Positions 11,248 through 26,107 of a DNA stretch of 39,871 bases are shown piece after piece. Position 1 is the first letter of the stretch. Every line of letters begins with the position of its first letter. The stretch comes from Chloroflexota bacterium. Its GTDB lineage: Bacteria > Chloroflexota > Dormibacteria > DASZGP01. Under the pieces are notes generated by a model, which saw only the letters and a list, made by a program, of their open reading frames with translations, was not told the DNA's origin and searched no databases. The translations under genes were made by a program, and so were the position numbers. The stretch lies in assembly GCA_034666445.1 (NCBI GenBank), contig JAXDLV010000224.1:1-39871 (forward strand). The letters run 5' to 3'.

Positions 11248-11311
11248 ATGCTACACCCTGCCGCGGCGCTGCCCGGGAGGCGGCGGACGGGCCCGGGTTG
11301 TTGGATAGACT
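11248..11311. promoter_or_regulatory. Divergent -10 boxes: TAGCAT (11253-11248, -) for the FkbM gene and TAGACT (11306-11311, +) for ahcY
   Basis: TANNNT hexamers lie 6 and 7 nt before the respective GTG starts (11241 and 11319). No SD in either case. Confidence 0.55.
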
Positions 11312-11318
11312 TGCCGCC

Positions 11319-12593
11319 GTGAATGTGAAGACCGCCGTCCGGCACGACGTCACCGACCTTGGCCTCGCCGCCGAGGGCAAGCGCCTCATCGACTGGTCCG
11401 CCCGCGAGATGCCGGTGCTGCGGCAGATCCGGGAGCGCTTCGCGGCGGAGAAGCCGCTGCAGGGCATCCGCATGTCGGGCTGTCTTCACATCACCACCGA
11501 GACGGCCAACCTGGCGATCACCCTGCAGGCCGCCGGCGCCGACCTGACCCTCTGCGCCAGCAACCCGCTCTCCACCCAGGACCCGGTCGCCGCGGCGCTG
11601 GTCGCCGAGCACGGAATCGCCACCTTCGCGCGCAAGGGCGAGGACAACGACACCTACTACCAGCACATCAAGGCCGCGCTGGAGTCGATGCCCCAGATGA
11701 CGATGGACGATGGCTGCGACCTGGTGTCGGAGCTGCACCAGCGGCCCGAGTCGGCGACGGCCGAGGTGTTCGGTGGCCTTGAGGAGACGACCACAGGCGT
11801 CATCCGTCTCCGCGCGATGGAGAAGGCAGGGGTGCTGCGCTTCCCCATCGTCGCCGTCAACGAGGCGCTGACGAAGCACATGTTCGACAACCGCTACGGC
11901 ACCGGCCAGTCCACCCTCGACGGCATCATCCGCGCGACCAACACCCTGCTGGCGGGCAAGACGTTTGTCGTCTGCGGCTACGGGTGGTGCGGCCGCGGGC
12001 TGGCCAGCCGCGCGTCGGGCATGGGCGCCCACGTGGTGGTCACCGAGGTCGACCCGCTGCGTGCCCTGGAGGCCGTGATGGACGGCTACCGGGTCGCCCG
12101 CCTGGAGGACATCGCCCCTGAGGCCGACTTCGTGGTCACCGTCACCGGCGACCTCAACGTGATCGACCGGCGCCACATCGAGAAGCTCAAGGACGGCGCC
12201 ATCGTGGCCAACTCGGGCCACTTCAACGACGAGATCAACATCACGGCGATGGACGAGATGAGCACCGAGGTCAAGCGGGTGCGCACCTTCGTCGACGAGT
12301 ACCGCCTGCAGGATGGGCGCTCCGTCTTCCTGCTCGGTGAGGGCCGCCTGATCAACCTGGCGGCGGCCGAGGGTCACCCCGCCGCGGTGATGGACATGAG
12401 CTTTGCCAACCAGGCGCTGTCGGCCGAGTACATGGCGAAGAACCACGCCAGCCTGGACAAGAAGGTCTACGACGTCCCCGAGGAGATCGACAAGGAGGTC
12501 GCCAAGCTCAAGCTCGCGGCGATGGAGGTCGACATCGACGTCCTGACCCCCGAGCAGGAGAAGTACCTGGCCTCCTGGGAGTCGGGAACCTAA
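11319..12593 (+). CDS. ahcY: Adenosylhomocysteinase (SAH hydrolase)
   Basis: Motifs [76 protein letters not shown] and MDMSFANQ. Start taken as GTG 11319. Confidence 0.97.
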
Positions 12594-12606
12594 GTCGTTC
12601 GGCTCA

Positions 12607-13219
12607 CGAGATCTGCCGACAGCAGCGGCTGATCTGTAGTCACCAGGCCGGCCGACGCCGCACATCCTGGGGGTTCATCCGGCCGGCGCCGCGACCAGGC
12701 CTTTCAAATCGCACCGCGCCGGCCTGCCTGCGCGGGCGGCCGCGCTGGCATCAGCCGTGGGTCTCTGCTTTCCGCCCGCTCCGGAAATCACCCCCAGGAT
12801 GCGCGACGCCGTCCGCCCTGGACTGCGCACCACGGCGCCGCTGCTCTGATCCGCGATGTCCTCATCGGAGGTGGGGGCAGCCGTTGACCACTTGTCGACA
12901 GCGGCAGGGCAAGCGCCGCGCCGTTGAGCTGCCGAAGGTAACCGCGGGCAGAGAACACCTCTAACAAGTCATCGCGGATAGAGGGACGGCTACCCCCGCG
13001 CGCAGTCCCGAGTGCCGGGTGCTGCAGACCCGGGGGCGATTTACGGAGCGGGCGGGATACGCACCTGGCAGGAGATGACCGGATCACGGCCGCACGCGCA
13101 GTAGGCCGGCGCAGTGGCATTGGAATCGCTGAACGCAGCGCCGGCCGCATGAGCCCTCGGGTCTGCGGCTCCCGGCGCCAGGGCCACCCGATACCCGCGG
13201 CAGCTGCCGCGATATCTCG
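12607..13219. repeat. ~613-bp nested imperfect palindrome (non-coding, possible structured RNA or ssDNA element)
   Basis: Exact inverted blocks in near-constant register about a centre at ~12913: 12607-12612/13214-13219, 12680-12689/13138-13147, 12716-12725/13103-13112, 12772-12783/13044-13055, 12820-12828/13000-13008, 12849-12858/12970-12979 and 12868-12873/12956-12961. Each arm is also self-complementary. Confidence 0.9.
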
Positions 13220-13221
13220 GG

Positions 13222-16200
13222 TCAGGCGGCGAGCTCACCCGTCAGGAGGGTGGGGGAGAACTGGCCCGAGATCGGCCCCGCACCGGCGTGGATCGTCACC
13301 CCGGGCGCGTTCCGGTTGGTCTTCCACTTCAGCTTGAAGACGTAATCGTGGCCTGTCGTCATCGCGAACTTCGTCTGCACGAACGCGGCGTTGGGAGAGA
13401 ACGTGCCGGCGAAGCCGCCGCTCTCCTTCCAGGCGAGCAGGGTGTCGCCGCCGCCGTTGTCGCTGACGAAGATGCCGATGTCCTGGTTGTAGCCGGCGAC
13501 CTCGGTCCAGAGGTCGATGTTGCCGCCCAGGAGCATCGAGCCGGAAACCGCCGGGGTGAACGCGAAGGTCGTCGCGCTGCTGAGCGTCTGCCATGTCAGG
13601 CCGTTCGAGCCGTTGAGGCTGAACTGCCCGGTGGAACGGCCGCTCAGGGGGTTGACGTCGTGGGGGATGACCTGGGCAGAGAGGCTCGTCGGCGAGAACG
13701 CGCCGTTGAACGGACCGGCGCCGGCGTGGATCGTCACCCCGGACGCGGGCCTGTTCGCCTTCCACTTCAGCTTGAAGGTGTAACTGTGCCCCGCCACCAT
13801 CGTGTGCGTCGCTTTGACGAATGCGGCGTTGGGCGAGAACGTCCCGGCAAAACCGCCGGACTCCTTCCAGGCGACCAGCTGGTCACCGCCGCTGTTGTCG
13901 CTGACGAAGATCGCGAGGTCCTGGTTGTAGCCGGCGGTATCGGTCCACAGGTCGGCACTGCCACCCAGCACGGCCGTCGAGTCGCCAGTCGGGTTGAGGG
14001 TGGCGCTGGCGCCCAGCAGCTGCCAGGTGACACCGTTGGAGTTCGCCAGGGATTGCTGGAAAGTGGTCACCCCGAAGCTGGGCACCACGCCGACGGGGAA
14101 GGACTGCACGGTCAGGGACGTGGGCGAGAAGAGCCCGCCGAGCGGCCCGGCCCCGGCGTGGATGGTGTTAGCCGGGGCGGGCTTGTTGGGTTTCCACTTC
14201 AGCTTGAAGGTGTACGAGTCGCCTCCGGTCATGCTGTAGGCCACCTGGACGAAGGCTGCGTTGGGCGAGAAGGTCCCGGCAAAGCCCCCGGACTCCTTCC
14301 AGGCCAGCAGCTCGTCAGCGCCGCTGTTGTGGGACACGAAGATGCCAAGGTCCTGGTTGTAACCCTCGCTCGAGGTCCAGAGGTCGGCGTTGGCGGTCAC
14401 CAGCGCGGTGCGGTTGTTGCCCCCGGGTGAGTTGATCAGCAGGTTGGCCGGGTCCAGCTCAACCCAGGTCGCCCCATTGTTGGCGCTCGCCAGGGTGTAC
14501 TGCGCTGTTCGCGACACGGTATTGACAAAGGGCAGCGCCGGGGCCGGCTGGACGTCGACGAAGCCGGTCACCGTCACCGCCTGGCCGTCCGGGTTGGTGA
14601 TGGTGAGGTCCTGCGGCCCGACGCTCGCGGCGCTCGTGTCGAGGCTGAGGCTGACGTGCGTGGGGTCGATGTAGCTGACGCTGTTGACCACCACCCCCCC
14701 GGTGATGGCGGCCTGGAGGTGGTTGGGGATGTTGGCGGCGGGGTCGAAGAAGCCGCTGCCGCTGACGGACGTGCCGGTGACCGAGAGCGTGGTGGCGGTG
14801 CGGTTGGTGAAGACCGGGCCGCTGCTGGACGTCGGCGTCGCCGGCGGCGGCGCGAGCAGCCTGACCGCCTCGACGCCCCACGAGTCGTTGGCGTTGGTGA
14901 ACTCCTGGATGGTCCACATGGTCATGTCATCGCTGGGGTCGAGGCTGGTGTAGGAGTAGTCGCCCCAGCGGTGCGGGTTGGCGCTGTCCGCGACGTTGTA
15001 GGTGAAGGCGCTCGCCTGGTAGATCACCGGGGTTTGCATCGTGCCGGGGCTGTCGCCCACCAGCCGCCCCATCGTGGCCGCCTCGGCGTGCTCGAGGTTG
15101 CCGGCGACGCTGCTTCCCATCGCAACGTGGCCCTGGCCCGACACCATCAGCGAAGGGATGAAGTAGAAGCGCGGGTTGGTGGCCGCCGGGTCGAACACCG
15201 TGCCGGACTGGTTGAGCGATGGCGCGGCCGCGAGGTTGCCGATGTCATACCAGCGAATCGCGTCGCGATCAGCCGTGCAGTTGCCGCCGGAGACCGTCGC
15301 CACCCCGCCGCTGTTGACGCAGATGTTGTGAGCGGTCCACAGGTGCCCGGCCCGAAGGTGCGCGGCCATCAGGCGGTCGTCCGTGGCGTCGAGGTTCACC
15401 GTGCTGCCGAGCGCGGGCACGCCGAGCGGGGACGACGTCAGCGGGACTGACAGCGCCAGGAGGGTGGCGCTGGGGCTGGTGCCAGGGTTGCTGACCCGGG
15501 CGATGTCGAGGCGCCCGAACACGCAGACCGAGATGCCGATGAAGAAGCCCTGGGTCGCACCCGGCGAGAGGTTGTCCACCCCCTGCGGCGAGTAGGGGCC
15601 GTCACCTCCGGAGCCGCAGGTTGTGCCGTTGGGGGACAGGATGAAATGGGTCGGGGACGGGGTGTTGGCGAGCAGCCCGGCTTTGGGGATTACCAGCCCG
15701 TCCGAGCCGGCGAAGGTCGTCACGTTGTTGCAGAAGACGTTGCCGCCGATATAGAGGGCACTGGCGTCTATCCCCAGGGTGTCGTAGTCCCACGCGCAGC
15801 TGGGGCGGAAGTTGGTGACGGGGAAGAACCCGCCCTGGAACAGGGTGGAGTTGGTGACCACGCCGCCGTTGGTGTAGCCCACCAGGATCTTGTTGCTGGG
15901 GGACTCGGCGGTGATCATCGTGAAGAACCACCGGTCGGTGAGGCGGTCGTAGCGGATGCGGGGATCCGACGTGCCGGCCTGGCCCCAGAACGCGTTGGTG
16001 GTCATGTCCAGCACCCCATCCGCCACGCCGGTGGCCTTGTTGAAGCTGCGGATGCGGCCGTTGATCATCACGATGTACTGGGTCGGGCCGACGGCGCCCA
16101 TGCTGTCCGGGGGCACCGCGCCGGAGTCACTCAGCTGGGCGCCGAGGAACTGCGTTCCCGGGGTCTGGGGCAGCAGCGGGCCGCGTACCGGGGCGCGCGC

Positions 16201-16488
16201 CGGCGAGGAGGTCGCCGGGTCGGCGGTGGCGTGCAGCTGGGCCGAGCCGGGGTCGACGCCGCGCTCCCCGCGCAGCGCCGGTCGCGGCGCCCGGGCGGTG
16301 GGCGGGCCAGGCACCGGGGCCATGGCGCGCAGCTGCGCCACGCTCCGCGCCGGGAGCATCGTCATCTGCACCTGGGTGCCCTTCACCACGCGACCGGCGT
16401 CGGTGGTCGCGGCGAGCGCGCCGTGTGGGAACATCGCCGCGGCCGCCACCACGGTGATGGCGGCAAGGTCGCGTAGCGTCCGCCCCAT
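13222..16488 (-). CDS. Large secreted protein: putative beta-propeller domain, Ig/IPT-like domain and three C-terminal WKESGG repeats
   Basis: Signal peptide ending ..HGALA and a Pro-rich segment. Motifs PPDSMGAVGP, SDPRIRYD and RWGDYS. Ig-like stretch VVNSVSYIDPTHVSL..QDLTITNPDGQ. Three ~140-aa terminal repeats. Confidence 0.8.
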   Translation of the reverse strand: MGRTLRDLAAITVVAAAAMFPHGALAATTDAGRVVKGTQVQMTMLPARSVAQLRAMAPVPGPPTARAPRPALRGERGVDPGSAQLHATADPATSSPARAPVRGPLLPQTPGTQFLGAQLSDSGAVPPDSMGAVGPTQYIVMINGRIRSFNKATGVADGVLDMTTNAFWGQAGTSDPRIRYDRLTDRWFFTMITAESPSNKILVGYTNGGVVTNSTLFQGGFFPVTNFRPSCAWDYDTLGIDASALYIGGNVFCNNVTTFAGSDGLVIPKAGLLANTPSPTHFILSPNGTTCGSGGDGPYSPQGVDNLSPGATQGFFIGISVCVFGRLDIARVSNPGTSPSATLLALSVPLTSSPLGVPALGSTVNLDATDDRLMAAHLRAGHLWTAHNICVNSGGVATVSGGNCTADRDAIRWYDIGNLAAAPSLNQSGTVFDPAATNPRFYFIPSLMVSGQGHVAMGSSVAGNLEHAEAATMGRLVGDSPGTMQTPVIYQASAFTYNVADSANPHRWGDYSYTSLDPSDDMTMWTIQEFTNANDSWGVEAVRLLAPPPATPTSSSGPVFTNRTATTLSVTGTSVSGSGFFDPAANIPNHLQAAITGGVVVNSVSYIDPTHVSLSLDTSAASVGPQDLTITNPDGQAVTVTGFVDVQPAPALPFVNTVSRTAQYTLASANNGATWVELDPANLLINSPGGNNRTALVTANADLWTSSEGYNQDLGIFVSHNSGADELLAWKESGGFAGTFSPNAAFVQVAYSMTGGDSYTFKLKWKPNKPAPANTIHAGAGPLGGLFSPTSLTVQSFPVGVVPSFGVTTFQQSLANSNGVTWQLLGASATLNPTGDSTAVLGGSADLWTDTAGYNQDLAIFVSDNSGGDQLVAWKESGGFAGTFSPNAAFVKATHTMVAGHSYTFKLKWKANRPASGVTIHAGAGPFNGAFSPTSLSAQVIPHDVNPLSGRSTGQFSLNGSNGLTWQTLSSATTFAFTPAVSGSMLLGGNIDLWTEVAGYNQDIGIFVSDNGGGDTLLAWKESGGFAGTFSPNAAFVQTKFAMTTGHDYVFKLKWKTNRNAPGVTIHAGAGPISGQFSPTLLTGELAA
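13225..14520 (-). repeat. Three ~140-aa repeats (ADLWT..GYNQDxxIFVS..AWKESGGFAGTFSPNAAFV..YxFKLKWK..AGAGP..FSPT)
   Basis: Three copies visible in the translation of 13222-16488. Confidence 0.9.
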
Positions 16489-25258: not shown

Positions 25259-26107
25259 TTGAAGCTCAGAACAGCATTGGCCCTCGCGGCGTCCGTCTTC
25301 CTGGCGGCGTGCGGCAGCAGCAGCGGCACCAGCGGGCCTCCGCCCGCCGCCACCGTGAGCCCGCCCCCGGACAGCGAGCTCGTGACTCCAGGGACACTAA
25401 CGATGGGCTCGGACATGTCCTACGCGCCCCAGGAGTTCTTCGATCCGCCAGGGTCGCAGACCGCGGCTGGTTTCGATATCGACGTGGCGAAGGCCATGGC
25501 TGACAAGATGGGGCTCAAGTTCACCGCGGTGAACCAGGGCTTCGATGGCCTGATCCCTGCGCTCGACACCAAGAAATTCGACATCATCATGTCCGCCCTC
25601 ACGGTGAAGCCCGATCGACAGGCCAAAATCGACATGGTTCCCTACTTCGTCGGGGGGCAATCCTTCGTCGTCAAGAAGGCAGGAAGCTTCAAGCCCGCCA
25701 AGCTCGAGGACCTGTGCGGGCACAAGGTCGCCGTGCAGAACGGCACGACCGAGCTGGACACCGTGAACGACGACCTCAATGCGGCCGGCAAGCCGTGTGC
25801 CTCGAACAAGGTCGACATCCAAAGCTTCCCCACCGATACCGAGGCGCTGGCCCAGCTCAAGAAGGACGCGGTTGAGGTCCACTACACGGACTCCCCAGTC
25901 GCCTCGTATGAGGCGAGTAAGGACAGCAGCGTTGTCGTCAGCACCAGCGCGCCCTTCGCGGTAGCCCCCGAGGGTATAGGACTGCGCAAGAGCAGCCCGA
26001 TCCTCGACCCGATCAAGAAGGCCTTTCAGGCAATCCGCGACGACGGTACCTACAAGAAGCTGCTGGACAAGTGGAGCCTGGCAGACGGAGACATCAGCAA
26101 GGCGTAA
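25259..26107 (+). CDS. Polar amino-acid ABC transporter substrate-binding lipoprotein
   Basis: AGGAGG before TTG 25259 and lipobox FLAAC. Motifs YAPQEF, GFDIDVA, FDGLIPAL..KKFDII and DGTYKKLLDKW. TACAAT at 25199-25204 is a candidate -10. Confidence 0.9.
   Translation: MKLRTALALAASVFLAACGSSSGTSGPPPAATVSPPPDSELVTPGTLTMGSDMSYAPQEFFDPPGSQTAAGFDIDVAKAMADKMGLKFTAVNQGFDGLIPALDTKKFDIIMSALTVKPDRQAKIDMVPYFVGGQSFVVKKAGSFKPAKLEDLCGHKVAVQNGTTELDTVNDDLNAAGKPCASNKVDIQSFPTDTEALAQLKKDAVEVHYTDSPVASYEASKDSSVVVSTSAPFAVAPEGIGLRKSSPILDPIKKAFQAIRDDGTYKKLLDKWSLADGDISKA

Follow-up and report, generated by a model that had tools for sequence, protein, structure and literature searches.

A ~640-nt foldback repeat at convergent stop codons of a soil Chloroflexota genome is probably a non-autonomous MITE-like DNA transposon

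In a soil Chloroflexota genome, an imperfect palindrome fills the gap between ahcY, which encodes S-adenosyl-L-homocysteine hydrolase, and a convergent open reading frame. We found that this palindrome is one of three dispersed copies of a repeat of about 640 nt. The copies possess terminal repeats and TA-containing junctions and are non-coding, and the spacer is absent from related genera. We consider it probable (about 0.68) that the element is a non-autonomous, foldback, MITE-like DNA transposon, which would be moved by a DDE transposase encoded outside the assembly. The DNA analysed, called the window below, is a stretch of 39,871 nt on contig C224 of the source genome (G000), a soil MAG of 2.62 Mb in 242 contigs, with a completeness of 93.5% and a G+C content of 70.4%.

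Results

The gap downstream of ahcY is a long and much decayed palindrome

The convergent stops of ahcY and of a 1088-aa open reading frame delimit the element in the window (12593-13221); all features are listed in Table 1. The TAA stop codon of ahcY (12591-12593) is itself the left junction, C-TA-A, of the window element. Its position is the same in six of the seven family relatives with a matching gene; the contig of the seventh does not reach the stop. A Pfam search with the 1088-aa frame matched no family. The N-terminus of this frame is hydrophobic and its C-terminal half contains three tandem repeats of ~146 aa; in the DNA, the repeat is 281 nt long, with 438-nt spacing and 79% identity.

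The original prediction described the gap as an inverted repeat with long arms that keep nearly one register. Both points were borne out. The region 12593-13221 is an imperfect palindrome over its full length, centred near 12913/12914, and an inverted-repeat search recovered four arm-to-arm blocks with coordinate sums of 25827-25829. In global alignment with its own reverse complement, the window copy shows 64.7% identity, and the other two copies, on contigs C199 and C68, show 68.0% and 67.3%, respectively, with 66-110 gap columns across the three copies. The palindrome is thus real and long, but it is much decayed, with many small indels, and is not a tight one.

Folding was compared with dinucleotide shuffles on both strands. 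The RNA fold of the window element had a minimum free energy (MFE) of -367.3 kcal/mol on the plus strand (z -9.8) and -387.4 kcal/mol on the minus strand (z -10.7), and the complete C199 copy folded as DNA gave -204.4 kcal/mol (z -9.5); in each case, none of 20 shuffles was as good. A single strand of the element is therefore predicted by the folding model to form a long rod that the two termini close. Variation among the three copies is greatest at the palindrome apex, where the MFE structure has small branched hairpins: 27 of the 75 substitution columns fall within alignment columns 300-399. The two examples of G-U-compatible mismatches given in the original prediction (12666-12678 on the plus strand and 12772-12798 on the minus strand) are correct on reading the sequence. 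Its further point, that neither strand is favoured, extends to the whole element: 7-15 mismatches are of the G-U type on the plus strand versus 12-17 on the minus strand, and 43-49 more mismatches between the arms are of the transversion type.

Table 1. Coordinates of the features discussed in the text (window numbering) and genes flanking the three copies
Feature	Position	Strand	Basis or remark
ahcY (S-adenosyl-L-homocysteine hydrolase)	11298-12593	+	translation; Pfam AdoHcyase 1e-60, AdoHcyase_NAD 6e-55
Convergent 1088-aa ORF	13222-16488	-	ORF list, translation; stop TGA 13222-13224 adjoins truncated right element end
Window copy of the ~640-nt foldback repeat	12593-13221	none	91-93% identity to two copies; fold z; self-reverse-complement alignment
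Left terminal inverted repeat, window copy	12593-12612	+	three-copy alignment; core GCTCACGAGAT
Right terminal inverted repeat remnant, window copy	13211-13219	-	12-column gap in three-copy alignment
Arm-to-arm block	12666-12707/13120-13161		74% complementary; inverted-repeat search
Arm-to-arm block	12703-12725/13103-13125		83% complementary; inverted-repeat search
Arm-to-arm block	12728-12742/13087-13101		93% complementary; inverted-repeat search
Arm-to-arm block	12772-12798/13029-13055		89% complementary; inverted-repeat search
Apex of palindrome	12880-12950	none	most variable part among three copies; small branched hairpins in MFE
Internal motif copy a	12643-12674	+	inverted pair with a', 84%
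Internal motif copy a'	12790-12821	-	inverted pair with a, 84%
Internal motif copy b	13007-13037	+	inverted pair with b', 81%
Internal motif copy b'	13153-13183	-	inverted pair with b, 81%
Flanking genes, C224 (window) copy		left +, right -	left, ahcY; right, repeat-rich 1088-aa ORF
Flanking genes, C68 copy		left +, right -	left, CYTH-domain gene; right, Iso_dh gene
Flanking genes, C199 copy		left +, right -	left, LON_substr_bdg (LonN-type) gene; right, unnamed ORF

The element is present in three copies in one genome

Besides the window copy, the source genome contains the element at C199:10287-10933 and C68:12459-13104. The pairwise identities of the three copies are 92.9%, 91.4% and 92.5% over 638-642 nt, and their flanks are unalignable. 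An nhmmer profile built from the three copies matched only these copies and their reverse-strand self-matches in the source genome. Three copies are a low number for a MITE, and the fragmented MAG may hide further ones. The suggestion of a non-autonomous, repeated element is supported by these dispersed, non-coding copies; the opposite case, a single-copy inverted duplication in neutral decay, is excluded by them.

Outside the source genome, we found no homologue of the element in the ~830 other genomes searched. There was no match in ten genomes of the family; in 60 relatives there were just three matches, of 29-44 nt (E 1.6e-4 to 7.5e-4); 373 further genomes of the class gave one match of 35 nt only, and 400 further genomes of the phylum gave none. 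A blastn search of plasmid and phage collections found no match to the element. Public contig collections were also scanned with exact patterns. A 27-nt pattern of the terminal repeat was found in 0 stretches of the genome contigs and 0 of the metagenome contigs. A 21-nt internal pattern was found in 8 and 11 stretches, respectively, and none of these 19 fitted the element profile (best match, 30 nt, E 0.032). Its copies form a small family of non-coding mobile DNA that is restricted to the lineage of this uncultured, high-G+C soil bacterium.

Terminal repeats, internal motifs and coding content

The two complete copies, C199 and C68, are 639-642 nt long. Both carry a 20-nt terminal inverted repeat: by manual count, the left end agrees with the reverse complement of the right end at 15 of 20 positions, including an exact 11-nt core, GCTCACGAGAT. 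Of its two terminal repeats, the window copy has kept the left one alone: similarity to the other copies ends at 13219-13221, the right terminus is missing its outer 12-14 nt, and the nhmmer match stops at model position 636 of 649. The last four right-end positions all differ between C199 and C68, which is odd for copies that are 92% alike.

Each arm contains one internal inverted pair, and the element therefore carries a ~32-nt motif four times in alternating orientation. The motifs lie ~50 and 197 nt from each end, and their four-way alignment has a mean column identity of 72%.

The original prediction saw no credible ORF, and we agree: the three copies have no open frame in common. In the element body, 67 substitution columns were counted, which split 27/18/22 by position modulo 3, with no 3-periodicity, and a Pfam search with seven element frames found no family below E 0.05. 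Promoter-like or terminator-like sites were not found inside the element. An Rfam scan of the entire window gave 0 matches at the gathering score. A permissive scan of 12000-14000 gave two sub-threshold matches, to narK RNA (25 bits versus 43.2) and Cgb105 (22.4 versus 163). The narK RNA match, which lies at the palindrome apex (12853-12922, minus strand, E 0.045), was taken as chance.

All copies lie between convergent stop codons

In every copy, the element fills the gap between two convergent open frames, running from the stop codon of one to that of the other. The neighbouring genes are of single-copy, housekeeping types; orthologues of the Iso_dh gene, the LonN-type gene and ahcY were found in 10, 10 and 7 of the ten family relatives, respectively. 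The left junction is C-TA-R in all three copies, and the right junction is Y-TA-G in both complete copies. In these two copies, TA is identical on both sides, although this amounts to two junction pairs and 2 nt only. Longer candidate duplications are imperfect in both complete copies: YTAR matches at 3/4 positions in each and NCTAGN at 5/6 in each, and every mismatch in these candidates is a transition that preserves a stop codon. AACTA is present on both sides of C199; in C68, only 3/5 positions agree.

Alignment with the relatives placed the stop codons of ahcY and of the LonN-type gene at their native positions, and the Iso_dh stop, to the right of the C68 copy, is native too. In one relative (G006), 5 nt separate the directly convergent CYTH and Iso_dh genes, and in another (G001) their ends overlap. 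In six other relatives, the two genes are ~350-400 nt apart, and the remaining two of the ten have no CYTH match at the locus. The ~350-400-nt stretch beside the Iso_dh stop was seen in L027, L028, L031, L033, L034 and L036; L030, a seventh relative, without a CYTH match, has a comparable conserved stretch next to its Iso_dh stop, and the stretch is absent from G000, G006 and G001. Among the ten relatives, eight show the convergent partner of the LonN-type gene, and in all eight the two genes abut or overlap. In four of the ten (G005, G006, G002 and G001), the LonN-type stop lies within CTAG. In two relatives, G007 (L017) and G004 (L020), the TAG stop of ahcY overlaps the stop of a convergent ~435-aa ORF in one CTAG, at about position 2778-2781 after orientation; this neighbour differs from the neighbour of ahcY in the window.

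Empty sites had been proposed as a check at the 3′ end of ahcY. Element-free orthologous sites exist for the CYTH/Iso_dh and LonN pairs, but none is comparable at ahcY, because the synteny downstream of ahcY is not conserved in the family. These comparisons are with other genera, at family distance, and not with a sister strain. The 14 sequencing runs listed included no RNA run. Within the species, the contigs of four soil runs were searched for an empty site, and none joined across the element; such contigs cannot reveal rare variants.

CTAG is rare in the source genome: 921 occurrences were observed, against 7125 expected from base composition, a nearly eight-fold under-representation. Open frames of at least 120 codons end in 592 of the 921 on one or both strands, and in 136 on both strands; the latter is an upper estimate, because at 70% G+C long open frames often arise spuriously. 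It thus seems common in this genome for convergent genes to share a CTAG stop.

Search for a partner transposase

With up to 2-3 mismatches, the terminal repeat was found at no other site in the source genome. In the same 93.5%-complete assembly, PF13358 (DDE_3), PF01609 (DDE_Tnp_1) and PF13359 (DDE_Tnp_4) gave no match. PF01797 (Y1_Tnp), the family to which a RAYT or IS200-TnpA enzyme would be assigned, also gave no match, although control genomes do match. MAGs tend to lose insertion sequences, and a transposase missing from a MAG of this completeness does not show absence.

A single IS481-family transposase gene is present in the genome (C13:7432-8769; L067; HTH_32, LZ_Tnp_IS481, rve and rve_3). 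It lies directly after a tRNA-like sequence and is accompanied by repeated subterminal motifs, and the contig ends 76 nt past the gene. The last 127 nt of this contig are identical to the starts of C230 and C136, and the IS is therefore probably present in at least two genomic contexts. As a partner of the repeat it was rejected, since the local end-alignment scores were 12-17, inside the shuffled range.

Discussion

A model for insertion at shared CTAG stops

We infer that the element spread by transposition, and likewise its TA/CTAG target and the class of transposase. The body of the element may be an old, decayed inverted duplication with 20-nt terminal inverted repeats at its ends, encoding nothing. 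A DDE-type transposase supplied in trans would have inserted it by cut-and-paste, with the TA of the CTAG tetranucleotide as the probable target. CTAG, rare in this genome of 70% G+C, lies mostly at stop codons and often at the common stop of convergent genes. The duplicated TA, together with the terminal purine of the element, would rebuild TAA or TAG on each side. Since both genes would retain an intact TAR stop, the insertion would be tolerated and survive; insertions into intragenic CTAG would be lost. The predicted outcome is an element that lies exactly from stop to stop between convergent genes. The window copy later lost the end of its right terminus and should now be immobile. The arms are ~33% apart and the copies ~8%, a difference of about four times, and therefore the element appears to have spread as an already decayed palindrome. 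As a secondary role, it may provide the flanking genes with a hairpin-forming 3′ end or a bidirectional terminator.

Among the hallmarks of MITEs, terminal repeats, lack of coding capacity, dispersed copies and, at family distance, element-free orthologous sites were all found. The target-site duplication is ambiguous: TA agrees on both sides of both complete copies, the longer candidates in part. Two other features are at odds with a MITE. Bacterial MITEs are usually well under 600 bp, and the length of 639-642 nt reaches or exceeds their normal limit; together with the 300-nt arms, it is unusual for a bacterial MITE. Further, an autonomous partner with matching termini was found neither in the source genome nor in the contig scans with the 27-nt pattern.

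A stronger form of the MITE-like reading can be drawn up, which we regard as speculative and on balance unlikely. Here, the element would be a foldback transposon of a previously undescribed kind, homing specifically to a CTAG stop that two overlapping convergent genes share; its own terminal purine would re-create a stop codon on either side; the four ~32-nt motifs would be binding sites of a dedicated transposase; and the host would retain the hairpin because it uncouples and terminates converging transcripts, so that the palindrome would be selected and not decaying.

Alternative explanations

A much less likely explanation is that the element is primarily under selection for structure at gene 3′ ends, as a long RNA or DNA hairpin acting as bidirectional terminator or mRNA stabiliser between convergent genes, whose mobile origin is secondary or which was copied by recombination. 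The very stable fold on both strands and the location of the three copies exactly at the 3′ ends of convergent gene pairs would suit such a role. The variation among the copies also bears on it. Copy-to-copy differences amount to 6.0-6.3% at arm-complementary positions versus 10.6-15.0% elsewhere (Fisher p for lower divergence at complementary sites 0.0008, 0.006 and 0.07, by structure-defining copy), and variation clusters at the apex and in one pair of segments with poor pairing. The lower divergence at paired sites is compatible with weak pairing constraint, but it fits equally well if fast sites are both mismatched and variable; therefore, we give it no weight in favour of a functional RNA. 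The consensus rod of the three copies comprises 225-227 pairs, of which 191-196 are invariant; 10-12 pairs vary on one side yet stay paired, and 17-25 hold a broken or gapped cell. Against these, compensatory, both-sided changes number 0-1, although three copies alone are uninformative for covariation. The G-U-type mismatches without strand bias, the lack of an Rfam family and of an internal terminator- or promoter-like site, and the relatives that do without such a spacer at the same gene pairs also speak against structure selection. The rod-like ncRNA of the original prediction is likewise not supported, given no Rfam match at the gathering score, no strand preference in folding energy or G-U-type mismatches, and 0-1 compensatory pairs.

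We also think it improbable that the element is a composite of two diverged smaller inverted-repeat units (12643-12821 and 13007-13183), each bounded on both sides by the ~32-nt motif, arranged head to head and moving by the outer termini. The alternating orientation of the four motif copies would agree with such an origin, as would the better match of the within-arm pairs (84% and 81%) than of the whole arms (~66%). However, the nhmmer profile found no solo smaller unit in the source genome, and the sequence between and outside the units is also palindromic, for which one inverted duplication of a whole arm is a better fit.

The first proposal made for this DNA, an ssDNA hairpin element mobilised by an HUH/Y1 nuclease of RAYT or IS200/IS605-like type whose gene lies elsewhere, now appears very unlikely. 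A single DNA strand would fold into the rod, and an incomplete MAG might miss the enzyme gene. On the other side, there is no Y1_Tnp gene in the assembly, and the element ends in inverted repeats with symmetric TA/CTAG junctions. IS200/IS605 and REP elements are not known to have terminal inverted repeats or symmetric junctions. Their insertion is one-sided, 3′ of a tetra- or pentanucleotide, and their hairpins are tens of nt long, not 300. Thus, terminal inverted repeats and TA/CTAG-type flanks indicate DDE cut-and-paste rather than an IS200/IS605 or REP mode of movement.

In a MAG of 242 contigs, one might suspect an artefact of assembly or binning, with a chimeric join or with one locus represented three times by co-assembled strains, but this can practically be dismissed: the flanks are unrelated and contain different single-copy genes with orthologues in the family, a contig of soil run X3 spans the right boundary (13093-13243) with 0 differences, and a second X3 contig covers 12590-12689 with 4 differences, starting 3 nt left of the element.

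Implications

What appeared to be a one-off giant palindrome becomes a three-copy mobile repeat, exceptional for a bacterial MITE in its length and in being palindromic over its full length. Because CTAG is depleted nearly eight-fold, an element seeking TA/CTAG would be funnelled to stop codons, where it could part overlapping convergent genes and harm neither. If a partner transposase is found, it would offer a natural system of insertion close to stop codons; if no partner exists, the mode of spread remains a question. For annotation, the case cautions that, in MAGs, a long and structured intergenic region at gene 3′ ends may be an assembly-breaking repeat.

Comparison with known systems

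Hairpin-forming sequences of several kinds share features with the MITE-like element proposed here. REP/BIME, ERIC and integron attC sequences are, like it, intergenic and hairpin-forming and often lie at the 3′ ends of genes; they measure tens to ~130 nt, and REPs require RAYT (Y1) enzymes, of which the source genome assembly showed none. Stowaway-like MITEs and foldback elements of eukaryotes also target TA and could fold into a hairpin along almost their whole length. They belong to a different domain of life, and a sequence relation is not expected.

Among systems with a CTAG-type target, the actinobacterial IS481-family element ISLxc2 duplicates NCTAGN, according to PMC2516522. Our element resembles ISLxc2, as portrayed there, in its CTAG-centred target and in stop codons supplied from the insertion site (PMC2516522). 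Unlike the NCTAGN duplication given in that account, its 6-nt duplications would match at 5/6 positions per copy. An IS481-family transposase is present in the source genome, but the ends of that IS are unlike the element termini. MITEPsy1 of Pseudomonas syringae, which is IS5-like, duplicates CTAG or YTAA in the description of PMC3189936, and our junctions, CTAA/CTAG and CTAG/TTAG, are similar. In that description, MITEPsy1 is 100 nt long and its 18-nt repeats match the resident ISPsy2; by comparison, our element is accompanied by no DDE_Tnp_1 gene in the assembly, and each of its 4-nt duplications would bear one mismatch.

Further parallels are found around IS630/Tc1-mariner. IS630 prefers TA in CTAG, by the title of a work cited in PMC2170065, and PMC2170065 reports that ISY100 duplicated TA in 34 of 39 insertions. 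The TA/CTAG context is present in our element, but a DDE_3 (PF13358) gene with matching ends was not found in the source genome. According to PMC2229807, RUP of Streptococcus pneumoniae is tied to IS630-Spn1, has TA targets and is 107 bp long, and the Correia elements of Neisseria are 107-155 bp. Compared with RUP and Correia elements as described there (~100-155 bp, in dozens to hundreds of copies), our element is 640 bp long in three copies, and its whole body, beyond the ends, appears to be an old palindrome with four internal motifs. In common with these MITEs, as the same source presents them, it is non-coding and intergenic, has terminal inverted repeats that can pair its ends, and carries TA at the insertion site.
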